Assembly (NCBI GenBank): GCA_045641145.1
Contig: JAZUGJ010000073.1
Location: 12,846 to 76,845 of the forward strand
Length of the DNA stretch: 64,000 bases
Direction: 5' to 3'
DNA from: Paludibacteraceae bacterium
GTDB lineage: Bacteria; Bacteroidota; Bacteroidia; Bacteroidales; Paludibacteraceae
Positions 12,817 to 59,634 of the stretch are shown piece by piece. The stretch's first letter is position 1. The number at the start of each line of letters is the position of its first letter. A program made the translations under genes and the position numbers. The notes under the pieces are model-generated. The model did no database searches and was not told the origin of the DNA. It saw nothing but the letters and a program-made list of their open reading frames with translations.

Positions 12817-13339
12817 TATCAAATTCCTGCCACAGCATGGACGGCTGGATGCCCTCGTTGTTCTGATACTTGCCGCCATCATACAGTTCACCACGAAGCC
12901 CAGTATAGGTGTGGAAATAAATCTGGCAAATCTCGACTTCGGGATAGATGCGGATGGGCTGGATGCAGGAAAGTTCCAATGTCCAGTATCCAGAGAAACC
13001 GATGTCGCCGAAGCCAGCCGTGATATGCACGAACAGACCAAGTCTACCGATAGATGACCGTCCCTCAATCATGGGGATATACTCATTGGTAGAAGTTCTC
13101 TCCATCGTCTGTGCGAGGTACAGCTTTCCGGGCTGAAGAACATAGCCCTCTTTCGGAATGGTAATAATTTCCACATCATTGGGCTTTGCCATGTCCAGTT
13201 CGTTGTTCTTGTACACCATCAGCTTATCGCCGATGCGGAGATTGTAGCTATTGGGATTTACCCGCTTTTCGTCAAAAGGCTCGATGGTGATAATTCCATA
13301 CTTCACATTATCTCTGATTGCCTGTCCTGTTAAAACCAT
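12809..13339 (-). CDS. dcd: dCTP deaminase
   Basis: 176 aa, with NPNSYNLRIGD, MIEGRSSIGRLGLFVH and GFSGYWTLEL. This is the classic Dcd signature. Confidence 0.9.
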   Translation of the reverse strand: MVLTGQAIRDNVKYGIITIEPFDEKRVNPNSYNLRIGDKLMVYKNNELDMAKPNDVEIITIPKEGYVLQPGKLYLAQTMERTSTNEYIPMIEGRSSIGRLGLFVHITAGFGDIGFSGYWTLELSCIQPIRIYPEVEICQIYFHTYTGLRGELYDGGKYQNNEGIQPSMLWQEFDNE

Positions 13340-30041: not shown

Positions 30042-30087
30042 CTGTATGAGCGTTTTAGTGTAACGGCACACCTAACACGCTGTTTCA

Positions 30088-30119
30088 GAAAAAAGAACAG
30101 GGCGGCATTTCTGCCGCCC
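30088..30119 (-). terminator. intrinsic terminator
   Basis: Minus strand: GGGCGGCA-GAAA-TGCCGCCC followed by TGTTCTTTTTT, 10 nt after the stop at 30130. Confidence 0.65.
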
Positions 30120-30129
30120 ACCCTGCGCT

Positions 30130-30690
30130 TTAGAACTCAAAGGGGAACAGGGACTCGCCGTCCTCGTTGAGGCACTTGTAGGTGCGCAGGATAGTGCCAA
30201 TCCGCTGGTCGTAGGACTTCACGGAAACCTTGTCGTAAGCCCAAGAACCGACAAGGTGGCGGTTTCCCTTGCCCATGTAGTCGCCACCGCCCAGACCGTT
30301 ACCGACAGCGGTCAGCATAACGAGGGGGGAGTAGCCGCCGCAGGTAAGGAAAACATATTCCTTGCGGTCATGGTTGACAGCAATCTCGGCAAAGGGCATG
30401 CCAGTCTTGACGGTCACGATTTCCGTTGCGTTCTTGCAGAAAGAACGAGCTACGGGAGTACCCATCTTCTCGGCGGCAGAACCGCCGCTCTCCGGGTGGG
30501 CGTAATCGCCGATGGTGGCGATGCGGACAGGCTTGCCAGCCTCGTGTACGAAGTTCGTGAGAGCGTTCGAGAACTGGAGGTTGGTGGCTATCTCGCACAG
30601 CTTGAGGCCAACCCAGTCACCGTTGATGACATCAGGCATGGTGTAGCGGGTAGTGCCGTTCTTGACGATAGTGAAGTAATACTGTCCCAT
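30130..30690 (-). CDS. hypothetical protein
   Basis: 186-aa ORF with a strong RBS AAAGGAG and its own promoter. Confidence 0.55.
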   Translation of the reverse strand: MGQYYFTIVKNGTTRYTMPDVINGDWVGLKLCEIATNLQFSNALTNFVHEAGKPVRIATIGDYAHPESGGSAAEKMGTPVARSFCKNATEIVTVKTGMPFAEIAVNHDRKEYVFLTCGGYSPLVMLTAVGNGLGGGDYMGKGNRHLVGSWAYDKVSVKSYDQRIGTILRTYKCLNEDGESLFPFEF

Positions 30691-31759: not shown

Positions 31760-33547
31760 TTACTTTTCTAACATACCCAATCTTCCGAGTACGGTTATAA
31801 ATTCTTCTCTGGTCATAACATCGTGGGGGCGTGTGCCATCAACAACACCGAGAGAAGTTGCTTTATCCCAACTGGGCTTTGCCCATGTGCTGGCTTCTTT
31901 AGTTTCGTTTAAGAAAGCACGATACTTGTTCCCGATTGTAGCAGATTGTTTATTATCAATCTTCTCGGTAAGTTCGTCAATCGTCATGTCCAGTTCCTCC
32001 TTGCTGTTTGTCACAACCTCGTTTTTCGGCTCGACTTTCGGCTCGGTCTTCCCGCTCTGTCTTAACATCTCGGCGGCGACACGAATTTTGAACTTTGCCC
32101 ATTCGCCGTCACTTCCGCTATCGCCGTTCCAGCCGATAATTCCGGGGCAGTTGCCCGTGATGAAAGTTTGTCCGTTCTGGCGCATCATGAACATACCAGT
32201 CGGGACGGTAACGCAGGTAACATCGGTTTTCCGTTCCGTCATCTCTGTATCGTAACGAACGGAGTAGTTACTGCCAGAGTAACGGACGGTATCATAGCTC
32301 CTGTCCGCACTTCCTGTAGCTCCAAGACGGCATCTTTTTCCACGAGTGGCAAATAATGCCTGTACGAAGTCAAGATTGTCCTGCTCACTACTGAAATACA
32401 TACTGCCCTCGACACTTCCGTCAGCAAGGAAAATCTCATCGAAAAACGCATTGAACTGCTCCTCGTTCATCTCGAACAGATTCCAAGAAAAGCGTTTGTC
32501 GGTAAGCCACTTCTCGCATTCTTGACAATGGCGAACTCCCCAGACACGGATAAAGGTACTGCCGTCCTTTTCGTAAGGAACGACATCGTACTTCAACTCA
32601 AGTGCTTTCAGTATCTCGATAACACGGTCTATCTTGCGTTGCTTCTTGAAGTGGAACTCAATACCTGTAGGGTTCTTTGCATCTTTAGAGCCGATGTAGT
32701 GACCGTCAGCTTGCACCCACACCAGAAAACGCAGATAGTCGATTGATAATGGCAATCCAGCCCCGTCATAGTCGCCAGTTACTTTGAGTTCGTAACTGGT
32801 TTTCTTTCCGAGCATATCGCCCCAATCCTTTATTTTCCACGGGGCGTTTGAGCCATCGGTAGCACGGTACAGAGTTCGATGGTCTTTGGTAGCCTCGTAT
32901 CCCCGCCGTGCGATTACAGTATCCACCCACGGAGTGAGCTTGTCAATGACACGCCCCCATACCACTCTGTCTTTGTCATAATCATAGGTCATAACCTCGT
33001 CCCCGATGCGGATTGCACCGAGGTTTTTCCAGCCGTTTCTGGTCAGCAATTCCGTCTTGTCAATCGGCAACGGCAACTTGCCCGTCACATCGTAATGCCG
33101 ATACAGTTTGTCGATACCAAGATTGTGCTTCAGCAGAAGATGCGCCGCAAGTTCAACAGCGTTCTGGATAACCGCATTTGTGAAGTAGTAGCTACTATCA
33201 TTCGGAGCGGTCATCTTGTGGATAAGATTGCTACTGCACATCTCAACGCTGATGCTGTTGTTGTTCTTGATAACTCCGTACATAGAACCGCCACGGGTAT
33301 AGTACTTCGAGCCGCCAACCGCACCTGTGTACACATTATCATTAGGCGAGTACCGCCAGATACTGCCGTCATCCACTACATAATCAGCAGATGCTTTTTC
33401 CTTTGAGGCGTTCCACATAGCACAGACATTATACGCCACGCCCTTTTTGGACTGCGTTCCTGCTGTGTAGTGCATCACAACATATTTGATGTTGCCGCTT
33501 CGATTCCATATTTTGTTTGCACCAGAAAATTGGTTAATCGGCAACAT
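31760..33547 (-). CDS. endolysin: N-acetylmuramoyl-L-alanine amidase (Amidase_2/PGRP type) interrupted by an intein, with a C-terminal SLH-like wall-binding repeat
   Basis: N-terminal amidase motifs (YVVMHYTAG, SVEMC, RHYDVTGK) resume at CPGIIGW after about 309 aa. The C-terminal WAKPSWDKATSLGVVDG..MTREEFITVLGRL is SLH-like. Confidence 0.85.
   Translation of the reverse strand: MLPINQFSGANKIWNRSGNIKYVVMHYTAGTQSKKGVAYNVCAMWNASKEKASADYVVDDGSIWRYSPNDNVYTGAVGGSKYYTRGGSMYGVIKNNNSISVEMCSSNLIHKMTAPNDSSYYFTNAVIQNAVELAAHLLLKHNLGIDKLYRHYDVTGKLPLPIDKTELLTRNGWKNLGAIRIGDEVMTYDYDKDRVVWGRVIDKLTPWVDTVIARRGYEATKDHRTLYRATDGSNAPWKIKDWGDMLGKKTSYELKVTGDYDGAGLPLSIDYLRFLVWVQADGHYIGSKDAKNPTGIEFHFKKQRKIDRVIEILKALELKYDVVPYEKDGSTFIRVWGVRHCQECEKWLTDKRFSWNLFEMNEEQFNAFFDEIFLADGSVEGSMYFSSEQDNLDFVQALFATRGKRCRLGATGSADRSYDTVRYSGSNYSVRYDTEMTERKTDVTCVTVPTGMFMMRQNGQTFITGNCPGIIGWNGDSGSDGEWAKFKIRVAAEMLRQSGKTEPKVEPKNEVVTNSKEELDMTIDELTEKIDNKQSATIGNKYRAFLNETKEASTWAKPSWDKATSLGVVDGTRPHDVMTREEFITVLGRLGMLEK
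32150..33076 (-). mobile_element. intein with a LAGLIDADG homing-endonuclease domain inside the endolysin
   Basis: Spans residues about 158-466. Block A-like IDKTELLTRNGWKNLGAIRIGDEV, block B TKDH, two LAGLIDADG-type motifs (LVWVQADGHY and IFLADGSVEG), block F/G DVTCVTVPTGMFMMRQNGQTFITGN, then extein CPG. The boundaries are approximate. Confidence 0.7.
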
Positions 33548-33786: not shown

Positions 33787-33990
33787 TTAAGAGAACAGGT
33801 CAGCCAGAGTCTTTTTCTTGTCCAACTGATAACCACGCATGATTTTACGCCACTCGTTGTATTCTTTGGAGTAGTCCTGCCAACCGTTCTGGATAGCGAA
33901 CTGCAAAGAAGCGGAATCGGCATCAATACCCAGCTTGTTGCCCAGAGCGGCGATACCTTTTCTGTTCTGATAGAAACGATTCTCGGTCAT
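33787..33990 (-). CDS. hypothetical protein
   Basis: 67-aa ORF between the holin and the endolysin. Confidence 0.45.
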   Translation of the reverse strand: MTENRFYQNRKGIAALGNKLGIDADSASLQFAIQNGWQDYSKEYNEWRKIMRGYQLDKKKTLADLFS

Positions 33991-34074: not shown

Positions 34075-34275
34075 TTATTTTTCGGCACTCTCAACCTCTG
34101 GCAGACCGCCGAGGGAAGTGAGGAGTGACAGAACCGCCGCAAGGGCGGCAGAGCCAACGACCACTTGCCAATCGACTGCGGTGATGGTAACGCCCGCAGG
34201 AAGCAGAGCCGCCGCAGTCTGACAGAAAGTCTTGACGGCACGGATAAGAGCCGCCTTAAACCAAATCATCGTCAT
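34075..34275 (-). CDS. putative holin
   Basis: 66 aa. RAVKTFCQTAAALLPAG plus a second hydrophobic helix and a charged C-terminus. It lies next to the endolysin. Confidence 0.55.
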   Translation of the reverse strand: MTMIWFKAALIRAVKTFCQTAAALLPAGVTITAVDWQVVVGSAALAAVLSLLTSLGGLPEVESAEK

Positions 34276-40654: not shown

Positions 40655-43600
40655 TCAGAACACCACGCTCATTGTATTCAAATCGCTTCCGTTCTTATAG
40701 AAGAACAGGCACTTATACGGCTTGCCCTTTTCGTTAAGTGCAGGCTCAAGACCGTACAAATCGCCAGCCTGTCCTTGTGCGCCGCCGAGCAGAACATCTG
40801 TATGACGGCGTTCAGCAAATTTAACAGGACGCAGTATTTTCAATCTGTAGTTTATCTCGTTGCTCTTGTTCTTGTACTTCTCCCACACATAGTAGTAAGT
40901 ACCAGTTGAGCAAGTCCACTTGGATGCGTAGATACCCGTTGCGGACTGGATGTTCCAATCACAGGTAGCATAGATTTCCTCATCGGTGGTTGCAATGCCG
41001 CTTGAGTTCTCCAGTCCTGTGATGATGGCAAAAACTGGCATCAGCTTACCGAACTCAAGGGTTGTTCCAGAGGATTTGTTTGCATCTGGTGCTTTACTAT
41101 ACAGGGTACTGCCAGACACGCCGTTCTGAACCTTTCCAGCCCCGTCATAGACATTATCAAAAGTAAATTGTCCATAGTATCCAGAAGCGGAAGTAGCAGA
41201 GGAGCTTATAACGCCGAGGGACTTCAGTTCACGGAATGCGCTATCGGTCATCAAACGGTAGTCCGTGGACACCTCTACCGAGGACTCGGCATTGTTATGC
41301 ACATCGCCAACATACGATGTGCCAGAAAGCGGAGTTGCGCTTCCGTTCCACTTGAACGCCTGTATCTGGGTTATATCAGCGATGTCGTTTCCGATAACGC
41401 CGTTAAAGTACTCCTTTACCTTTGCCTCAAGTATAGCATCGGTAAGGCTATAGCCATACGAACCGACAAGTGTCTGCACGGATTTGTTCAGACCGCCATT
41501 ACCATTCGCACCATAGATAGCGGTGTTGAGAGCGGCAATCTTGTCTTGAAGTTCCTTGTCGTCAAACTTTATCTCGTCCGCATTCGTTATGTATCCGTTC
41601 TCCAAGAGGAAAGCAGAAACCTGTGCCATAGTAGCATAGCCGCCAGTAGAAGAATGGGCAGGGGACGCATCAGACCAGTCACTCCATCTGGACGCATCAT
41701 CCGCACGGTTGTAATAGTACAGTCTTGTATAGACATCGCCGTATGCGGTATACAGGCTCTGGCTGATATACTCTGCGCTTCCTACATTACCGATTGCGGT
41801 ATTGACAATGCGCACAGAACCAGAAGCGGTTATATTTGTCGGCAACCTTTCCGCAAGCAGGGTAGTGTATCCTTTCTCTTTTCGGATAAAAGTGCCTGTG
41901 AGTCGGAAACTGTTCAAGTCGAAGTTCGTTACCTTTTTATCCTCTGTTGCCCCAGATACGAAGTCGAGGTTCACACCGCCGTTCAGCATCGCCACATTGA
42001 CAGAACCCTTTGTGAGGTCGCCACCATAGGAGTCGTGCATAGCCGTTCCGTTGTATCCAACGCTGATACCGTGCGGGGCTTTGATAATGGAGCTATCGGT
42101 GAAGTCGTACTTGTAAGTGCCGAGGTTCTTATAAGTCCATCTTACCCCTGCTTTCTGCAAGTCCATCACTATCTGGCTCAATTGCTGTTTCGTATAGTAG
42201 GTCGCCGCATCGAGGTAATCGTCACCCGCCGCTGTCTTTGCCCCTGCATTGGTAGTGGCGGCAGTTACGCCGTACCAATCCTTACTGTAAGTATACGGAG
42301 TGTTCGCTGGCACTTTATCCACCACCACATCACGGAGACCAGAGTCGTTACTCGCATCCCCTGTAGTATACGCCTCTACATAAGTGGCAAAGTGCATAGC
42401 GGTTGCAAACTCGCTTGCCGCACCCAGCGCAAGGGAATTGTTCAGAACGCCGCCGTACAATCCGAGGTTTCTTATCGTGAAGTGCGGGTTCTCGTGGATA
42501 ACCTTACCGCCATAGCACAGTCTGCGGATATAGTCGCCGTACAGAGCGTTCATCGTAACCGTTGTGTTCTGTGCGGAGTTGCATCTTACTATATCGCTAT
42601 AGCCTGTCATTCGGCATCCAGATATATTGACAATGGCGTTGTTGCCCAGAACCGTCACGAAGTGCTTGATTTCCGTATACAACAGGTTGTTGCTGTTGTC
42701 AAGTCCTGTTTGCTTATTGTACCGATACAGTACCTTTCCAACTTCTCCGACATCCGTACCAGCCAGTTCCGCTCCCGACAGTTCTGCTTCTTTATCCTCT
42801 GGCTCATCGAAGTTTTTCTCCTCAGAAGAGTTCTCTGGTATCTCCACAGAACCGTCCATTTCGGGCAGATTATCATGGTTTTGAGTCTCATCCACACCAC
42901 TATATGTAGTGTCCTCAGAACTCTCGTTACCAGATGTAGATGTAAAGGAAGAATACTTTACACCGTAAAACTTGATGTCTTTGAAATTCAGAACAGAGTA
43001 CAAATTGTCCCATTTTATGGACAGTTCAGTTTCTCCGCACTTGCAAGAAGCGTATGTTGCGCTCTTGTAGGTAACGGTGAAAGTCTTACCTTTGTATGCC
43101 CCTACCTTACCGATAGCGACTCTGTACGGCTTCTCTCCGCTCGACAGGGTATGGTTAAGTGCATCTTTCAAGTTACTGTACTTGGTCACGACACCGCCAT
43201 CGTCTATCTGGCAGTACTCGGCGAAGTTCAGTTCGTAGTTGGTTCTGCGGAATGATAATCCAGCATCGCTAACGGTAGTGGCTTTATACTCATCGTAATC
43301 GTCACTTCCGTTCGTATGCACGGTATCGGCTATACAGTTCTGGATATCGACCACGGCGTTATCACGAACGGAGATGTTACTTGCAGAGGATGAATGGATT
43401 GCGGCTTTAGAAAGCCAGAAACCAGCGATACGGATTGTTTCATTCGGGTATACAGAAATGTGTGTCTGGATACGGTACAGTTTAATCCAATTTACCCAAT
43501 CGGCATTATACTTACCTGTTGCGGTTTGAGAGGGAGTGCCTTTGCGGTATATGTGTTCGGAAACGATATTTATCCGCTTTCCGAAACCGTAAGAGGATAT

Positions 43601-45859
43601 AAACTCGCTACTTGTTGTGGTTTTCGTTACCGCCCAATTGTCATTATTCTGAACCAGACCTGTATTAACCCGCTTGGAGTAACCGAAGTAGTTGTGTTGC
43701 AGGTAATTGCCTGTTCCGTTTTTAGCACGGCACTTGACCACGATATACGGTTCTGCGGCTGATATGGTATCCTTATGCCCGCCGAGGTAAGTTACCGCAT
43801 CGGAAATCCGTCTGAACGGTCTCCAGTAAGTACCATCACGCACAAGGGTATTATCAAGAGCTTTGCTTTCGTCTGGTTCTCCGAAGTCCACGAACAGAAC
43901 GAAGCGATTGTGCGGGTACGCTCTCTTGATAGGAGTTATATCCAAGTCGCTTCTTTTGCGGAAAAGCACCCCGCCGACACTAATGTATTTGACGGGCTTG
44001 TTATAAGCAAGCTGTGTAGGTGTATTCCCGTAGAACTCCAAGTCGGTTGCGAACGCTTTTGTGGAGTTGTTTATTCCGCAACAGACCACGATTTCTTTTG
44101 GTTTGATGTGGTACGCCCATTGCGGCATCGTAAGGGACTGGTCTTTATACTGCCAGTTTGCATCATGATGGTTATGCTTATACAGGTCTATTCCCGCAGG
44201 AACAAGCCCTGTACGCATGATATGCTCTTGAGCGGAGCGGGAAATATCGCCAGAAAAGAACACGGTCTTTCCCATGTGGTTTGCCAGCAGACACATGGAG
44301 TAGTCATTTTCAATATAACGGGTAGAGTAGCTTGATGAGCCTTTGCTGGCGAAGTCGTCTACCTCTTCCTGTATCTGCATAAGGTCTACATAGTATCTCG
44401 CTCTCTCTGTACGGTATATCTCCGCACTTCCAGAACTTACCAAATCATACAGATGGTTGAAGTCCTTGGTGTACTGGACATCGTTCTCGAAAAGTTTTTC
44501 TTGGGTACAAATCTCGTATCTATAGCCGTAGTAATCATTTGGAGCGTTGTATCTGCGCTTGTAGACATAGATATACTTCTTTGTGCCGTTATCGTCCACA
44601 GCGGCTATAACGGCTCTCTGCGGCGGTCTGGAAGTGCAATTCACGAAAGTGATTGAAAATTCATCCTCGCAGTAGGTCTTATCCGCAGTATCTTTCGGAG
44701 TTGAGGTAACATACTCCAAATCGTATGCCGTTTCGCCGTCCTTTTCCGTTTTGGTCAGAACGAGTTTATCGCCCTCGGACGGGAATGTGATATTTGCGAA
44801 CAGTTTGTTTGGAGTCATCGTCTTGGAGTATTCGAGAACGATACTATTCTCGTTATCCGTTTCCGGGGAACGGGATGCTCCGAACAGGTCGTTCTCCACT
44901 TCGTTTTCAAAGCGGGTAACAACGCTGTACACATCTGAAGTTTCTCTGTATGCTTCCAGTTCACTTTGCAAGGCGGGAGTTATATCCTTACCGTTATAGG
45001 TTGTCGCATTGACTCCCTTGCCGTAATAAGACGCTGGTGCGAATTCGATAGCGGACTTGTCGATAACGCCACAAGCGTCCATCCAGTCCATAAAGGTTAC
45101 TATGCCGCCGTAACGCATTCCGCTCCCAGATGGGCTTGTCGCTCCATTGGGATAATGCCCGATACAGGGTGAGCCATAAGGAAGATAGACTTTTGTATCC
45201 TTTGTGATAAGGCGGGTAGATGTCTTGGATGTTGATAATGGGAACACCAGCTTTGCTTTCCCGTCCACGGTACACTCGTAGTAACCGCCTACATTGGATG
45301 GGATAGCAGAGGGTTTCGTGATGAACAAGCCCTCGTAGACCGTTTTCCCGTTTGTACAGACAACACCGTTCTCGTATATCTTGTGGTAAACCGCAAGTCC
45401 GCCGTAATGGTCTTTGTGCCAATGGGAAATCGCTATGATATCGACATGGGTTATCTCATTCTCTGTCAGATTTTTCCAAAGCTGATAGGCATACTCGACA
45501 CCGCCGTTGTTGCCGATATCGACAAGGATAGTCTTACCGTACACTTTGATAGCAAGGCATTCTGTCGCTGAACCAGCAGTGGTTGCCTGTGCATTGAAAA
45601 TGTACTCCACCTTTTCGGTGATGGGCTTCAGACGCTCCTCAATGTTCTTATCGAACTCCTGTATCTTACCCTCTATGTCGCCCATCAGAGTGGTAAGGTA
45701 GTCTTTCGTGCCGTCAATCACAACGCCCTGTAGGTCGGACATCGCCATCCGCTTTACTTTGTTTACACCATCTTCTGGGTGTACTGCTACAACCGAAGTT
45801 TCAGCGGTAACTTCGGCTTGCTTTATTTTCGGTACTTCTGGGAGTTTAATCAAACTCAT
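40655..45859 (-). CDS. giant (1734 aa) virion fibre/tailspike-like protein with an N-terminal metallo-beta-lactamase-fold domain
   Basis: TILVDIGNNGG...DIIAISHWHKDHYGG (HxHxDH) and the later LYKHNHHDANW. The central region looks like a beta-helix. A C-terminal knob-like domain is present (DLNSFRLTGTF...RWSDW). Confidence 0.65.
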   Translation of the reverse strand: MSLIKLPEVPKIKQAEVTAETSVVAVHPEDGVNKVKRMAMSDLQGVVIDGTKDYLTTLMGDIEGKIQEFDKNIEERLKPITEKVEYIFNAQATTAGSATECLAIKVYGKTILVDIGNNGGVEYAYQLWKNLTENEITHVDIIAISHWHKDHYGGLAVYHKIYENGVVCTNGKTVYEGLFITKPSAIPSNVGGYYECTVDGKAKLVFPLSTSKTSTRLITKDTKVYLPYGSPCIGHYPNGATSPSGSGMRYGGIVTFMDWMDACGVIDKSAIEFAPASYYGKGVNATTYNGKDITPALQSELEAYRETSDVYSVVTRFENEVENDLFGASRSPETDNENSIVLEYSKTMTPNKLFANITFPSEGDKLVLTKTEKDGETAYDLEYVTSTPKDTADKTYCEDEFSITFVNCTSRPPQRAVIAAVDDNGTKKYIYVYKRRYNAPNDYYGYRYEICTQEKLFENDVQYTKDFNHLYDLVSSGSAEIYRTERARYYVDLMQIQEEVDDFASKGSSSYSTRYIENDYSMCLLANHMGKTVFFSGDISRSAQEHIMRTGLVPAGIDLYKHNHHDANWQYKDQSLTMPQWAYHIKPKEIVVCCGINNSTKAFATDLEFYGNTPTQLAYNKPVKYISVGGVLFRKRSDLDITPIKRAYPHNRFVLFVDFGEPDESKALDNTLVRDGTYWRPFRRISDAVTYLGGHKDTISAAEPYIVVKCRAKNGTGNYLQHNYFGYSKRVNTGLVQNNDNWAVTKTTTSSEFISSYGFGKRINIVSEHIYRKGTPSQTATGKYNADWVNWIKLYRIQTHISVYPNETIRIAGFWLSKAAIHSSSASNISVRDNAVVDIQNCIADTVHTNGSDDYDEYKATTVSDAGLSFRRTNYELNFAEYCQIDDGGVVTKYSNLKDALNHTLSSGEKPYRVAIGKVGAYKGKTFTVTYKSATYASCKCGETELSIKWDNLYSVLNFKDIKFYGVKYSSFTSTSGNESSEDTTYSGVDETQNHDNLPEMDGSVEIPENSSEEKNFDEPEDKEAELSGAELAGTDVGEVGKVLYRYNKQTGLDNSNNLLYTEIKHFVTVLGNNAIVNISGCRMTGYSDIVRCNSAQNTTVTMNALYGDYIRRLCYGGKVIHENPHFTIRNLGLYGGVLNNSLALGAASEFATAMHFATYVEAYTTGDASNDSGLRDVVVDKVPANTPYTYSKDWYGVTAATTNAGAKTAAGDDYLDAATYYTKQQLSQIVMDLQKAGVRWTYKNLGTYKYDFTDSSIIKAPHGISVGYNGTAMHDSYGGDLTKGSVNVAMLNGGVNLDFVSGATEDKKVTNFDLNSFRLTGTFIRKEKGYTTLLAERLPTNITASGSVRIVNTAIGNVGSAEYISQSLYTAYGDVYTRLYYYNRADDASRWSDWSDASPAHSSTGGYATMAQVSAFLLENGYITNADEIKFDDKELQDKIAALNTAIYGANGNGGLNKSVQTLVGSYGYSLTDAILEAKVKEYFNGVIGNDIADITQIQAFKWNGSATPLSGTSYVGDVHNNAESSVEVSTDYRLMTDSAFRELKSLGVISSSATSASGYYGQFTFDNVYDGAGKVQNGVSGSTLYSKAPDANKSSGTTLEFGKLMPVFAIITGLENSSGIATTDEEIYATCDWNIQSATGIYASKWTCSTGTYYYVWEKYKNKSNEINYRLKILRPVKFAERRHTDVLLGGAQGQAGDLYGLEPALNEKGKPYKCLFFYKNGSDLNTMSVVF

Positions 45860-54575: not shown

Positions 54576-57500
54576 TTACTTGATTATAAGTTTGTGATTT
54601 GCCGTGTCAATGTCGGTAACTGTTTCACGATTCCAAGCAGTCCAGCCAGTTGTATTGCCAATGTAGATACGCTTGTATGAAGTTGACAGCGGTAAAGAAG
54701 TAGTCGCTGAATATCCCGCCGTAAAGCGTTGCATAACTCTTGTAGGAGTGGAGTGCCAGTCGCCGGGGATAACTTCCAGATAACCAACAGGATGTCCGCC
54801 ACTATCTGTTGTGGGGAAGTTTGCAGAGGATGCAAACAATGTTGTAGTATCGAAGTAGTAGTGACCTGCGGTAGTGAAACTGTTGCAGTCCAGAACCTCT
54901 GTGGACTCGCACACGACTTCGATTTCGCTGTAGCTTGAGTTATCCGTAATCTGGGCAATCTTTGTCTTATTATCATTTCCGTACACAAGGAAACAACCGA
55001 AGCCATCTCTTGCCCGCTCTGCAATTCTTATCCACGGTTTCCATGCACCAGACGCATAGGAACGCATAAACATTGAAGTGCCAGAAACGGAAGTATCCAG
55101 AGAAGTGTAAATCTGGATTGAGCGTGAACCAGAAGCTTCAGCGGAGTACACTTGAAGTACGCCGTACTGGGCAGTTGCCTCGCTCGGCTTGTTTTCGGTT
55201 GAGGTATTGGAAATGTAGTAGATGCCCTGTGTCTTGTAGTTGTTCAAGTCCGTATCCACTTGCGTAATGGCATATTTTTCCAGACGAGAATCAGCCACAT
55301 CTTTGACTGCTTTCGGGGTTGCCGCAAGGTCAGTAGCAGTAGAAGAGGTACTGCTTGACAGCTTGGTAGCACCGTATACGGAAGTGGTAGCGACAGGGAT
55401 GGTTGCGGTATCGCCAGAAACAACAGAAGCCGTTCCGACCTTAACATCGGTAATGCCGCCGCCCCCGCTCACACTCTGATTATCAATACGAGTCCAAGCG
55501 TTATAGGAGTCGCCGTTTCTCGTTCTCATCCACATAGCATTTGATGCCAGACGGAACAGAATCTGAACCATGTACTTGTATGTGCTATCGTATGCGTACT
55601 GGCGCAGAGTGTAGTATGTCGCTGTGTTTGGTGCATCAGATGGTGTGGTGGCGGTATCGAAGTAAGCAGGAGCTTTGAGGTTGCCGTAGATACCGTACAC
55701 TCTGGTTGCCAACGGGAACTGGTCAAAAGAAACAACATCCACTTCAGCATCGTTGACCGTTGCTTTCTTGAACACATCGGGTGTAGAGTCTTTCGTTGTC
55801 TTACTGCTATAGTTATAGACCTTTGTGATATTGGAAATGCCCGCATCGAACATCTTCTTGTCGTTGGCAATTGCCAGTCCGTTGGCAGTAGAAGTTACCG
55901 CAGGAATGGTGGAGAAGTCAACGGAAATCTCGCCGTTGCTCACGGAGATGTTATCGCCGACCTTGACCAGACCGAGTGCGCCTGTAGTTGCGGCGTTATA
56001 AGCCGTTCCGAGCGCATCCCACTTTGAGCCTGTCCAAGCGTAACTCATACCATCGGACTCTGTCGTTCCGCTCCACACATTAACAATGTTTCCGGGATGG
56101 ATTTCTTTGTATCCAGTAGCAGTAGTGCTTCGTGCGGTAACTGTGCCAGAGGAGATGGAGTAGAACTTATTGGTAGCGGTAATCTTGTTCATTTCTGTCG
56201 TACTCTTGACAGAGCCGACATACTCGTATGCGCCGCTGATAGCGGTTGACACGGCAGAACTGATTGCGCTTTGAGTTGCCTTTGAGGACAGCACCGTATC
56301 GTCTGTATCGGTAGAAGAAGTAGTGGACAGCTTCACCAGACCAGCTTTAGTGCTGTTCGCATTGGTAATAGCGGAAGCAGTTGTGTTTGCGGCGGTCGCA
56401 AGGTCATACGCCGCCTTAACCGCCTTTGCGGATGCGATGGTGGTAGAGGATTCGGAGTTGGTGGCATCGGACATAAGGTTATCTGTAAGAACCGTATGCC
56501 AGCTTTGCCAGCCAGTATCCCCGACAACCTTGACTCTGTACCACTCTCTATCCGTTTTAGCGACATTGGAAATCTCATACAAACGCTGAACCAGTCGCCC
56601 GTTACTGTTTGCGTAAGAAATCACTTCGAGTGTGAAGTTAATAGCAGAGGCACTTGTAATCGGGAAGTTATTATCCGCTGTAACACTTCCTGCGGTTGCG
56701 GCGATGTAATAATTACCATCATCCGTATAGGAGTTGAGGTTCATATCCGTACCGCTCTTTGTGGCAACTGCGGCTGACGCAGAACTTGCCAAATCGTATG
56801 CGGCTTTAACGGCACTCGGCGTTGCGGCGGTAGTAGTGCTTGTGCTATCGGTTGCAGTTTCCAGTTGAACAGTACCGACTGAGCTTGTGGATGCGGCGGT
56901 AACGGAAGAACCAGAAATCTTACTTGTACCAGTAAGGGTAATGCCCTTTTCAAAGGTTGCGGCATCCTTAAAGGTAGAAGTTGAGGTCACTTGCAATGTG
57001 CCTCCGACAGAAGCGTTTCCAGTTGTTGACAATGAAGAGGCGGCAAGTGCGCCATCTGTCACAGTCACCTTGGAGCTACTATAAGTCTGCGGGTTTGCCG
57101 CTTGTGAGGTTGCACCGATAAGGTAAATGGCACTCGTGGTATTAGTTGAGCCTGCGGTATTCTTTGTGTTGGTATCGGAGTAGTAGAGGTCTGTAGATGT
57201 GCCGTCAATCGTGATGGTCGCAAGTTTCGTACCAGAAGTAACAGCCCGCTCGACAGAAACCTTTGAGGCATAATCCGTATCCAGAGAAACTGTTCCGTTT
57301 GCGGAAACATTGATACCTGTGCCAGCCTTTGTGGCAACGGGCATCCAGCTACCCCAAGAGCTACCATTGAAAATGCGGATAACGGCATCGTTCGCTGTAT
57401 CAGTCGGTGAGAACCACAACTGCACACAGTAAGAACTCGCCGCAGGAGTATCATTTGTGTTGCCATTGAACACATGAACGATACCCACGCCAGTAGATGG

Positions 57501-59615
57501 CTTGTTATGCGTGCTTGCGTTTGAGTCAGCATTCGCATAATAGCGTCCTGCCGCCTTGATGGTGTTCATGTCAGTTGCGGCAGTAATCGTGGCAACCGCT
57601 TCTCTGTTAACTGTCAATGCTCCGTTCGCATCAACCGCCATTCCGTTTCCGGGCTTCACAACGCCGAGAGCAGAGGCGGTGGCAGTATCGGCGGCGATTG
57701 AAAATGCGCCAGTAGCAGGTGTCAGGGTAATGGCACTTCCCGCCGTGATGGACAATGCGGAAGTTGAAGTGGCAGGATTAACTGCCGTTCCCGCAACTGT
57801 GAGTGAGGAGAAGTTGTTCGGAATATCTGGAATTGAATAGGTCAATCCAAGGGCATCCCAAGTAGAACCAGTCCAGACATAATTCATGCCATCTGATTCA
57901 GAAGAACCGCTCCACACATTCATCACATCGCCTGTGCGGATAAGAGAGTACCCAGAGGCAGTGGTGGTTCTTACGGCAACTGCACCGCTCGTAATCTTGT
58001 AGTATTTGTTTGTGGCAGTAATCTTATCCAGTTCCGTTTTAGTCTTAACAGAACCGACATAAGAGAACGCACTCTTAACACTATCGGGCAAGGCGGTGAT
58101 AGGGATGTTGGTCAATCCAGAACCATCGCCTGTGATTTTCTTTCCGCTTGCGATAGTGACATCGCCGTTAAAGGTTGTCGCCCCGCCAACAGTAAGGGAA
58201 TTAGTCACGGCAATATCCTTTGCGGACAGCTTGCCGCTACCGTCAATGGTAACTTGACTATCGGTAACTGCACCTGTCATAGCCGTTGTAGGTGTAGTTC
58301 CTGTAGCCAGAACAGGTGTAGCAGAAGACGCGGCGGTAACTGCCACAACGGTATCCGTCAATCCAGAACCAGAGGGAACATCGACCTCGGTCAGAAGTTT
58401 GTGCCAGCTTTGCCAGCCGTCCTTGTTCTTATAACGATACCAAGTCTTTCCCTCATTGCCGCCTGCGACCTTGTAGAGTTGCTGAACGGTTCTGCCGCCA
58501 TCTGCGTTATACACAGACAGAACATAACGACAATCCGTTGTGGAGGCTTCGGGGAAGTTATTTTCAAGAGTAACCAGACCGCTTGCATACTGGAAGTAGT
58601 AAGAACCAGCAGTCGTATAGTTATCGAGGTTATTGTCTGTCGCTCTTGTACCAACCCAGTCGGGAATGGTAATAGAAGTAGCTGTGCCGCTACTCGGGGT
58701 CATCGTGATGGTGTTGCCGCTTGCGGATACGGAGTAAGACAGAGAAGTCTGGCGTACCCAATCGGTAGCTTTATACAAATCACCACGGGAATAGTTTACC
58801 GTTTCGCCGTCCTTTGTGTAAGAACCATCGGCGGTGCAGATATACAAAGTTCTCGTAAATTCCTGCTCTGGAATGCTGATGTTCTGGGTAACGGTTCTGA
58901 ATGTCTGCTTGTAGATACGATAAGCAGGGTATGTTCCACCATTGGAAACGGTATAGGTTGTTCTCTCGACCTTGATAAGTGCGAGAACCTTTTCATAACC
59001 CGCTGGTGTATTTTCACTCGGACTTGATGCGTTGTAAGACAGCAGATAGTCCCCGACATAGGAGAAGTCTTTCTCGCCGTGCAGGTTGTTCAAGTTCGCA
59101 CCGACAAGTGTAGGGGCATCGCTGTCATCCAGTTTAACCCAAGCCGCAAACACGCCCGCCACCTTGAAGCGATACCAAGTATCACGGGCGTATCCGTTGA
59201 CCACACGGTACAGTTTCTGAACGCCGTACTGCTCCGCCCCCGTGCCGTATGAACGAACATCAATGATGTAATGTTCCTCAACGGTTGTGGAAGTCGCCGG
59301 GGAGTTCAGAAGTGGTGTGCCGCTCGGTTTGTGAATGTAATATGCGCCGTTAGTAATTGTCGCACTCGTATAATCGTCAAGATTATACGAAGTTCCCTCT
59401 CTTACGCCGACATCAAACAGCAGACCATCTGAAGCGGCATTAGGAACGATGTCCAATGCGCCGCCGCCCTCAATGGTAATGCTATCGGAGTTGGTATCGG
59501 CTTCGAGAGTAATGTCACCAACCACGACCTTGTCGAACTTCACAGAAGTGGTATCGACTACATCGTAGGTTGTCGAGTCAATCATGACTCTGTTAATCTT
59601 CTTGTTTTCAGCCAT
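54576..59615 (-). CDS. giant (about 1680 aa) multi-domain tail fibre with repeated knob-like and DGMNY modules
   Basis: ATG 59615. N-terminal INRVMIDSTTYDVVD. At least 7 knob-like units (xLNxYxxxGxYY...W.R......W..W). Two copies each of GSVK..EL/MDKITATNK.Y and DGM(N/S)Y(V/A)WTGS.WDALG. Confidence 0.7.
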   Translation of the reverse strand: MAENKKINRVMIDSTTYDVVDTTSVKFDKVVVGDITLEADTNSDSITIEGGGALDIVPNAASDGLLFDVGVREGTSYNLDDYTSATITNGAYYIHKPSGTPLLNSPATSTTVEEHYIIDVRSYGTGAEQYGVQKLYRVVNGYARDTWYRFKVAGVFAAWVKLDDSDAPTLVGANLNNLHGEKDFSYVGDYLLSYNASSPSENTPAGYEKVLALIKVERTTYTVSNGGTYPAYRIYKQTFRTVTQNISIPEQEFTRTLYICTADGSYTKDGETVNYSRGDLYKATDWVRQTSLSYSVSASGNTITMTPSSGTATSITIPDWVGTRATDNNLDNYTTAGSYYFQYASGLVTLENNFPEASTTDCRYVLSVYNADGGRTVQQLYKVAGGNEGKTWYRYKNKDGWQSWHKLLTEVDVPSGSGLTDTVVAVTAASSATPVLATGTTPTTAMTGAVTDSQVTIDGSGKLSAKDIAVTNSLTVGGATTFNGDVTIASGKKITGDGSGLTNIPITALPDSVKSAFSYVGSVKTKTELDKITATNKYYKITSGAVAVRTTTASGYSLIRTGDVMNVWSGSSESDGMNYVWTGSTWDALGLTYSIPDIPNNFSSLTVAGTAVNPATSTSALSITAGSAITLTPATGAFSIAADTATASALGVVKPGNGMAVDANGALTVNREAVATITAATDMNTIKAAGRYYANADSNASTHNKPSTGVGIVHVFNGNTNDTPAASSYCVQLWFSPTDTANDAVIRIFNGSSWGSWMPVATKAGTGINVSANGTVSLDTDYASKVSVERAVTSGTKLATITIDGTSTDLYYSDTNTKNTAGSTNTTSAIYLIGATSQAANPQTYSSSKVTVTDGALAASSLSTTGNASVGGTLQVTSTSTFKDAATFEKGITLTGTSKISGSSVTAASTSSVGTVQLETATDSTSTTTAATPSAVKAAYDLASSASAAVATKSGTDMNLNSYTDDGNYYIAATAGSVTADNNFPITSASAINFTLEVISYANSNGRLVQRLYEISNVAKTDREWYRVKVVGDTGWQSWHTVLTDNLMSDATNSESSTTIASAKAVKAAYDLATAANTTASAITNANSTKAGLVKLSTTSSTDTDDTVLSSKATQSAISSAVSTAISGAYEYVGSVKSTTEMNKITATNKFYSISSGTVTARSTTATGYKEIHPGNIVNVWSGTTESDGMSYAWTGSKWDALGTAYNAATTGALGLVKVGDNISVSNGEISVDFSTIPAVTSTANGLAIANDKKMFDAGISNITKVYNYSSKTTKDSTPDVFKKATVNDAEVDVVSFDQFPLATRVYGIYGNLKAPAYFDTATTPSDAPNTATYYTLRQYAYDSTYKYMVQILFRLASNAMWMRTRNGDSYNAWTRIDNQSVSGGGGITDVKVGTASVVSGDTATIPVATTSVYGATKLSSSTSSTATDLAATPKAVKDVADSRLEKYAITQVDTDLNNYKTQGIYYISNTSTENKPSEATAQYGVLQVYSAEASGSRSIQIYTSLDTSVSGTSMFMRSYASGAWKPWIRIAERARDGFGCFLVYGNDNKTKIAQITDNSSYSEIEVVCESTEVLDCNSFTTAGHYYFDTTTLFASSANFPTTDSGGHPVGYLEVIPGDWHSTPTRVMQRFTAGYSATTSLPLSTSYKRIYIGNTTGWTAWNRETVTDIDTANHKLIIK

Positions 59616-59634
59616 ACGCAATCACCCTTTCCTG

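Follow-up and report, generated by a model that had tools for sequence, protein, structure and literature searches.

A predicted LAGLIDADG intein beginning with proline in the endolysin of a large phage

Inteins usually reside in genes for replication, repair and packaging. What, then, is an intein-like insert doing in a lysis enzyme, and how could it splice if its first residue is a proline? The gene that raises this question lies in a 64,000-nucleotide stretch of DNA (hereafter the window; positions 12,846 to 76,845 of the forward strand of contig JAZUGJ010000073.1, assembly GCA_045641145.1, assigned to a Paludibacteraceae bacterium). It encodes an endolysin whose amidase domain is interrupted immediately before the cysteine at its zinc-ligand position. 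An earlier note, made from the letters of the window alone, had proposed that the insert is an intein without an N-terminal nucleophile. With proline as residue 1, the precursor cannot begin splicing in the standard way. We consider it reasonably likely that the insert is a functional, mobile LAGLIDADG intein of 308 amino acids (aa) in the endolysin of a large phage, and that it most likely splices by the class-3 route.

The insert and its host gene

The precursor is encoded at 31760..33547 on the minus strand, as are all of its parts described below (595 aa, 67.5 kDa; stop codon 31760-31762), and consists of an Amidase_2 N-extein, the intein and a C-extein with a C-terminal tail. Its amidase part matches amidase and endolysin families in PHROG. 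In the unexcised open reading frame (ORF), the Pfam Amidase_2 model covers only aa 18-154, corresponding to profile positions 3-122 of 131, and it is the sole Pfam domain above threshold in the whole protein with its insert. Two stretches of the amidase, RHYDVTGK (aa 150-157) and CPG (aa 467-469), are held apart by the insert. When aa 159-466 were removed in silico, the Amidase_2 score rose from 49.7 to 58.7 bits and the match extended to profile positions 3-130 of 131 (E=9.6e-16).

We set the boundaries of the insert from intein-less homologs and from the junctions of about 170 relatives. From two database searches came about 40 amidases that carry this insert in the same position and many others that lack it. 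The intein-less homologs P0045, P0048 and P0060 read RHYDVTGK(L/H)^CPG(I/V)xGWN (^ marks a junction), so Leu158 belongs to the N-extein and Pro159 opens the intein; the intein-less target site around the junction is ...GGCAAGTTG^TGCCCCGGA.... An ungapped alignment with five distant relatives had pointed to Leu160 as position 1, which was overturned by the 40 or so close relatives, in which the insert starts CLP(I/L)D... within a GKx^CPG extein. The earlier note had placed the interruption correctly between RHYDVTGK and CPG and had given its length as about 309 aa and its first residue as either Leu or Pro; the intein-less homologs correct the length to 308 aa, taking one surplus codon off the N-terminal side of the note's coordinates, and leave Pro159 as the first residue.

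The N-extein (33074..33547, aa 1-158) holds most of Amidase_2 and ends in ...RHYDVTGKL, while the C-extein (31763..32149, aa 467-595) starts with CPGIIGWN... and completes the domain. In the family alignment, H26, E102, H151 and K157 of the N-extein are invariant or nearly so. From general knowledge of Amidase_2 enzymes such as T7 lysozyme and PlyL, we take these residues and Cys467 to be the zinc-ligand and catalytic positions. Cys467 is at the same time the +1 residue of the intein.

The intein (32150..33073; 35.6 kDa) runs from Pro159 to Asn466 (PLPIDKTELL...TFITGN). Block A (33029..33073) is PLPIDKTELLTRNGW, with Pro159 (CCG, 33071-33073) at position 1. Block B (32867..32908) is RRGYEATKDHRTLY, with Thr220 at B:7, His223 at B:10, Arg224 at B:11 and Thr225 at B:12 (block positions numbered after Tori et al. 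2010, PMC2807308). Block F (32177..32224) is DVTCVTVPTGMFMMRQ and includes DVTCVTV (aa 442-448), with Cys445 (32213-32215) at F:4. Block G and the +1 residue (32147..32170) read QTFITGN^C, with Thr464 at G:5, Gly465 at G:6, Asn466 at G:7 and Cys467 at +1; the C-terminal junction FITGN^CPG spans aa 462-469. The LAGLIDADG homing-endonuclease domain (32258..32764, approximately aa 262-430) has a first motif LRFLVWVQADGHY (32696-32734; VQADGHY, aa 278-284) and a second motif FDEIFLADGSVEG (32405-32443; FLADGSVEG, aa 373-381). Every motif quoted in the earlier note is present: IDKTELLTRNGW at the place given there, TKDH (aa 220-223), VQADGHY, FLADGSVEG, VTCVTV, and TGN followed by a cysteine.

That the insert is an intein is supported by its fold and its homology, in addition to the restored Amidase_2 match and the intein-less alleles, and the proposal of an intein in an endolysin amidase is thereby borne out. 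An AlphaFold2 model of the precursor, built on 34 relatives, had a mean predicted local distance difference test score of 81.6, with most of the insert above 90. Searched against solved structures with Foldseek, the insert matched the TliVMA intein (E=1.7e-12), followed by PI-SceI, PI-PfuI and I-DmoI (the last at about E=4e-6), while the extein part matched the amidases XlyA, PlyL and PlyG. The family profile, searched against the PDB, found the AceL NrdHF intein best (6zgq, E=1.6e-7), along with the Mtu RecA and Spl DnaX inteins. Single-sequence phmmer searches of PDB sequences with the insert and with the in-silico spliced amidase found nothing, and a 47-aa query from blocks F and G gave only spurious repeat-protein matches in the PDB.

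In an exhaustive search of 1.84 billion representative proteins, the insert alone had 2726 matches at E<=1e-3, 99 of them at E<=1e-30. Matches at this level, like those of the model, go well past what chance would produce. Inserts of other phage genes align with it along its whole length at 24-30% identity, and the hosts of these related inteins include ribonucleotide reductase (RNR), primase/helicase, RtcB, DNA methylase, DNA polymerase, ThyA and TerL. Six related phage inteins that we checked at their junctions all have a Cys start, an F:4 Cys and a GN end followed by Cys, Ser or Thr. The C-terminal Asn is invariant in 146 relatives (Asn466^Cys467 in the window). The insert also carries a LAGLIDADG homing endonuclease, with two motifs, conserved acidic residues and an I-DmoI-like fold: D123 and G124 of the intein (motif 1) and D218 (motif 2) are invariant in the family, and Pfam LAGLIDADG_3 matches 7 of 19 relatives.

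Proline at position 1, conservation and mobility

All of the approximately 170 relatives with a defined N-terminal junction begin with Cys (Cys1), except for five that begin with Pro (Pro1): the window protein, P0007, P0008, P0009 and P0187 (141/146 and 5/146, respectively, in the aligned set). The first four form a single clade, with a bootstrap of 94 in a 32-sequence tree and a support of 0.92 in a 146-sequence tree. In both trees, which took in no canonical class-3 sequences, this clade is nested among Cys1 inteins.

With Cys1 in nearly all relatives, Pro1 could in principle be an assembly or sequencing error at the Cys codon of an ordinary class-1 intein. The DNA at the junction makes a slip imaginable: window positions 33065-33076 read TTGCCGTTGCCG, in which the 6-base unit TTGCCG occurs twice in perfect tandem and codes for Leu-Pro-Leu-Pro. 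We rejected a slip in TTGCCGTTGCCG as having destroyed a Cys codon, since the L-P-L-P of relatives is specified by unrelated codons, and the repeat is probably incidental. Pro1 is seen in the window contig, in Logan run SRR28408156, in two ENA contigs each for P0008 and P0009, and in one JGI contig. The Logan contig (L012) encodes P0126, which is 99% identical to the window protein at the aa level and keeps GKL^PLPIDK. The Pro1 codon differs (CCG in the window, CCA in P0007 and P0009, in a comparison that did not include the DNA of P0187), as does GC content, which spans 22% to 49% in the host genes. At least two base changes separate Pro from Cys, and Pro1 co-varies with three further residues, Trp49, Leu46 and Met28. 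A sequencing error is thus effectively refuted. Pro1 is a genuine, derived and heritable trait of the clade, and the earlier note was right that the window intein has no N-terminal nucleophile.

The most striking of the co-varying residues is Trp at intein position 49 (Trp207 of the ORF, 32927..32929), a candidate compensatory residue found in 5/5 Pro1 inteins and 0/141 Cys1 relatives. Leu46 and Met28 also occur in all five Pro1 inteins, and in only 1% and 6%, respectively, of the 141 Cys1 relatives; Thr at G:5 occurs in 5/5 Pro1 inteins vs 39/141 Cys1 relatives. The Fisher value of 2e-9 for Trp49 is nonetheless too strong, as the five sequences represent only one or two events. P0187 (622 aa, with an intein at about aa 157-471) belongs to a different amidase subfamily, and its junctions read HKDFAATA^PLPIETTDLL...FITGN^CPGQIY. 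We considered P0187 as a member of the window's clade and rejected this, as it joins the Pro1 clade in 0/60 bootstraps and none of its segments is particularly similar to that clade. Cys1 may therefore have been lost twice; the switch to Pro1 may have been a single event or two events, with P0187 switching independently of the window clade.

Does the insert still work as an intein? Loss of Cys1 normally kills splicing in standard inteins (PMC2807308), and the insert could instead be a decayed or domesticated intein that does not splice: a tolerated domain, one that only cleaves, or part of a defunct lysin whose work another enzyme does. Structurally this is conceivable, since the termini of the HINT fold are adjacent, so the amidase could fold around the insert, and the AlphaFold2 model folds the two together with high confidence. 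A backup enzyme is also conceivable, with a gene for an SLT-domain protein adjoining the P0007 homolog and half of the phage contig lying beyond the window. Within the 64-kb window itself, a tblastn search with 125 amidase, glucosaminidase and intein proteins found no second lysin, no other Amidase_2 gene and no second intein.

The pattern of sequence conservation argues against such decay. The 146 aligned family members show little or no variation at B:7 Thr/Ser, B:10 His, G:6 Gly and G:7 Asn, and 145 of them have the F:4 Cys. The splicing residues His223, Cys445, Asn466 and Cys467 have persisted despite about 45% aa divergence and despite silent substitutions; between the window and L012, the codons of both Cys445 (TGC to TGT) and Cys467 differ silently. 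The intein is under purifying selection, as the codon changes between these two copies show: 13 synonymous and 2 non-synonymous changes in the intein alone, and 34 and 6 in the whole gene. Comparisons of the window with P0007 or P0009 are uninformative for dN/dS (the ratio of non-synonymous to synonymous substitution rates), because dS is saturated.

The sister phages carrying P0008 and P0009, rather than the window copy itself, also bear on mobility. Between these two, the N-exteins have a dS of 2.3 (saturated) and a dN/dS of 0.05, while the inteins have a dS of only 0.06. In a sliding DNA comparison of the two loci, the inteins are 97-99% identical and the exteins and flanks 52-84%, with identity dropping sharply at the intein borders. 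This pattern is the probable footprint of a recent homing of a Pro1 intein into a diverged allele, which would mean that the endonuclease works. A non-splicing insert at the zinc ligand is hard to reconcile with the recent transfer of a Pro1 intein and the strong constraint on the amidase of its carriers, and we consider decay improbable. An IS605 OrfB/TnpB-type gene (Pfam OrfB_IS605 and Cas12f1-like_TNB; L010:156-1418, minus strand) lies two genes upstream of the P0008 endolysin and has no counterpart at this position in L001.

Splicing class and mechanism

We infer both splicing itself and the choice of the initiating cysteine for the window intein, and here weigh the routes that could apply. 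Class 1 requires Cys, Ser or Thr at position 1, where the window intein has Pro159. Class 3 was defined operationally by Hoffmann et al. 2020 as having no Cys at position 1 and a Cys at F:4 (PMC7891396); with Pro159 and Cys445, the window intein is operationally class 3. It also has all three residues of the class-3 triad Cys-His-Thr (Cys445, His223 and Thr464), for which see Beyer et al. 2020 (PMC7664689).

The closest solved relative of the window intein by profile match, AceL NrdHF (6zgq), is biochemically proven to be class 3, with B:11 Arg assisting the last step (PMC7891396). In AceL NrdHF, the distance that corresponds to the one between the sulphur of the attacking cysteine and the Leu158 carbonyl carbon is about 3 Å. 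Both inteins are of phage-like origin and lack an N-terminal nucleophile, and they have in common the F:4 Cys, the G:5 Thr, the penultimate Gly and the terminal Asn. In block B, both have S/T-x-x-H-R followed by a residue other than Trp (HRMIY in AceL NrdHF, HRTLY in the window and HRMLY in P0007-9). Neither has a penultimate His, and B:11 Arg is available to compensate in both. They differ in that AceL NrdHF is naturally split, begins with Ala1, is followed by Ser+1, resides in an RNR subunit in association with a GIY-YIG endonuclease and has the triplet MCT, whereas the window intein is contiguous, begins with Pro1, is followed by Cys+1, contains an internal LAGLIDADG endonuclease, resides in an endolysin and has Thr rather than Met at B:12.

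A second set for comparison is formed by the canonical class-3 inteins with the WCT triplet, namely MP-Be DnaB, MchDnaB1, Msm DnaB-1 and Bvi IcmO (PMC2807308, PMC7664689, PMC5222942). The window intein shares Pro1 with MP-Be DnaB, the prototype class-3 intein (PMC2807308), and Cys+1 with Bvi IcmO, in which the Cys+1 is unable to replace the block-F Cys (PMC5222942). It also shares the Cys(F:4)-His(B:10)-Thr(G:5) triad and the association with phages. Unlike the canonical set, it has no Trp at B:12, has a class-1-like TxxH, and resides in a protein other than a helicase or P-loop ATPase. Its lineage also differs from the described class-3 group in being nested in a Cys1 family, with Trp49 co-varying with the loss of Cys1. 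The Cys1 phage inteins of this family, found in RNR (Shivani, SHSML-45), primase/helicase (KIL phages), RtcB (BCP8-2), a mycobacteriophage DNA methylase and a Lak phage, share the block layout, the F:4 Cys, the ...GN end and the LAGLIDADG domain with the window intein, but start with Cys and have hosts that are all nucleic-acid metabolism genes.

By analogy with these systems, splicing would proceed in four steps. Block-F Cys445 would first attack the Leu158-Pro159 bond to form an internal thioester branch, with assistance from Thr220 and from block-B His223, which block-G Thr464 would hold in place. The N-extein would then be handed to Cys467, the +1 residue. Cyclisation of Asn466, with Arg224 probably standing in for the missing penultimate His, would free the 35.6-kDa intein, and an S-to-N shift would yield the mature 31.9-kDa amidase, joined as ...GKL-CPG....

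Several points weigh against a functional intein of class 3. Splicing is only a prediction, for the window intein as for every amidase intein. In place of the signature Trp of class 3, position B:12 has Thr (Thr225) in the window, Met in P0007-9 and Val in P0187, giving the triplet TCT in the window and MCT in P0007-9. F:4 Cys is also present in 140/141 Cys1 relatives and is not diagnostic by itself, and we dropped the block-F Cys alone as a class-3 marker. Curated intein models miss the insert, as the family has diverged too far for them: Pfam gave only sub-threshold matches to the insert (Hint_2 at E=0.076 and LAGLIDADG_3 at E=0.16), and no NCBIfam intein model matched either the insert or the whole protein. 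The model alignment proposed in the earlier note thus restored Amidase_2 upon excision and left the intein models below threshold. The window also covers just 64 kb of a contig of about 134 kb, so a second lysin may lie elsewhere. Finally, with Cys+1 present, a class-2 route is chemically possible.

In this last scenario, Cys467 would attack the Leu158-Pro159 bond directly, forming a standard block-G branch, with Cys445 only assisting. The class-2 intein KlbA (Ala1) resembles the window intein in having no N-terminal nucleophile, a Cys+1 and a TxxH in block B; it differs in its F:4 Asp, its penultimate His, its archaeal origin and its unrelated sequence (Southworth et al. 2000, after PMC2807308). 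A class-1/2-type TxxH without the class-3 Trp fits this route, as does a block-F Cys that, being shared with the Cys1 relatives, may serve some purpose other than as a nucleophile. However, class 2 by definition lacks a block-F Cys (PMC2807308), and the window intein has both Cys445 and Thr464. The nearest characterised relative, AceL NrdHF, uses its block-F Cys, and Bvi IcmO, the one class-3 intein with Cys+1 to have been studied, cannot use that residue in place of the block-F Cys. The G:5 Thr found throughout the Pro1 inteins is likewise a class-3 trait. We therefore regard the class-2 route as unlikely. B:12 deviates from Trp in 6.1% of class-3 inteins, and in the proven AceL NrdHF (PMC7891396). 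The triad, the relationship to AceL NrdHF and the precedent of Bvi IcmO together favour initiation by Cys445, and the class-3 assignment is, on sequence grounds, the favoured one. The earlier note's hint of a class-3-type intein is supported by the operational definition, the triad and the AceL NrdHF relationship, with the missing B:12 Trp and the non-diagnostic block-F Cys as its limits.

The penultimate Gly, correctly noted earlier, is a family-wide trait rather than a defect, being present in 139/141 Cys1 relatives. AceL NrdHF has it too (G145; PMC7891396), as does a mycobacteriophage intein (PMC5050341).

The nesting of Pro1 inteins among Cys1 relatives raises the question of how they arose. 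Beyer et al. described class 3 as a single lineage, unlikely to have evolved directly from class 1 (PMC7664689). The family may instead record a recent switch from Cys1 to a nucleophile-less, class-3-type intein, made without the block-B Trp and with co-varying Trp49, Leu46, Met28 and G:5 Thr, along with a gating of lysis; we put this forward tentatively, as an idea that is somewhat short of probable. Ten Cys1 members do have a B:12 Trp (P0200, P0190, P0214, P0207, P0243, P0222, P0211, P0216, P0212 and P0219), at host junctions such as ...GKV^C...N^CPGD, and seven of them have the full WCT triplet. The presence of WCT in Cys1 members of the same family blurs the boundary between class-1 and class-3 signatures.

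Host range, lysis cassette and implications

How unusual is an intein in a lysis enzyme? A full-text search of the literature found no description of an intein in an endolysin or amidase, and of the 156 GenBank phage records in which related inteins occur, none had a lysin as host. Published data on mycobacteriophages give intein interruption in 0 of 224 endolysins, and in early surveys nucleophile-less inteins other than KlbA were found only in helicase-like ATPases. In metagenomes, by contrast with the literature and the GenBank phages, there are on the order of 100 amidase-borne intein clusters (at 50% identity) of this family. The claim in the earlier note that such a host is unusual therefore holds for described phages and not for metagenomes. 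The hosts of the best 150 cluster representatives are mostly of the Amidase_2 type, from several subfamilies.

In the viral structure library BFVD, at least two gut-virome proteins align with the precursor model over 491-570 columns, and an alignment of this length to the whole precursor probably reflects the same endolysin-plus-intein architecture. The BFVD matches are A0A8S5RY88, A0A8S5P6X8 and A0A8S5NZS4, two of which are named 'Hint domain N-terminal region', and a BFVD entry named 'TIGR02594 family protein' also bears an intein-like insert. P0128 and P0201 have related inteins at a different junction, ...DTAWH^C...N^CGN..., which resembles the earlier conserved AWH.G motif of the amidase. 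Judging from these residues, lysis enzymes may offer inteins a second insertion site.

The endolysin of the window is accompanied by a holin gene upstream (34075..34275, minus strand; 66 aa), which matches PHROG 443 (E=5e-17) and Pfam Phage_r1t_holin (E=2.8e-14), and the independent contig L012 has the same holin-endolysin gene order. Other genes of the window match tail-fibre and helicase/exonuclease families in PHROG, and P0006, an identical protein, is encoded on a contig of 134.6 kb. Together, these genes and the length of that contig identify the region as the lysis cassette of a large phage. A megablast search of GenBank phages with 3.5 kb around the gene gave no match, pointing to a phage without a close cultured relative.

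Some features of this region are less readily interpreted. Between the holin and endolysin genes lies a 67-aa ORF (33787-33990, minus strand) with no Pfam match, and L012 has an ORF of equal length at the matching place (2309-2512). Following Amidase_2, the C-extein continues as a low-confidence linker and then a helical C-terminal tail; this region (31763-32060, minus strand, aa 497-595) has no Pfam match, and model confidence is low at aa 504-556. The last 50 or so residues (W..WAKPSWDKATSLGVVDG...TREEFITVLGRLG) are found again in relatives such as P0010 and P0027, and resemble, to the eye, an SLH-like cell-wall-binding motif. Local GC content peaks at 0.57-0.58 at 30050-30650, compared with about 0.40-0.50 nearby, and the peak coincides with a 186-aa ORF (30130-30690, minus strand) with no Pfam match. 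There are also two very large minus-strand ORFs, at 40655-45859 (1734 aa) and 54576-59621 (1681 aa); the latter has tail-fibre PHROG matches and the former has no PHROG match.

An intein family residing in phage lysis enzymes, at the zinc-ligand Cys, represents a new kind of host protein for inteins. Robust class-3 inteins with a Cys+1 are rare tools for protein engineering. As the family contains closely related Cys1 and Pro1 forms that differ in few co-varying residues, it also offers a test bed for claims on the evolution of class 1 and class 3; a switch from Cys1 to a class-3-type intein, if true, would contradict the published view of class 3 as a single lineage (PMC7664689).

For the phage itself, much depends on the unspliced precursor, including whether lysis timing would be tied to splicing as the earlier note proposed. 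If the precursor is active, the endolysin would be an example of a tolerated intein. If it is inactive, lysis would need a post-translational step, possibly a redox- or zinc-responsive one, adding a new layer to the control of lysis. With a zinc ligand of the enzyme itself serving as the +1 nucleophile, activation of lysis would then be gated by splicing that is sensitive to cysteine chemistry and zinc.

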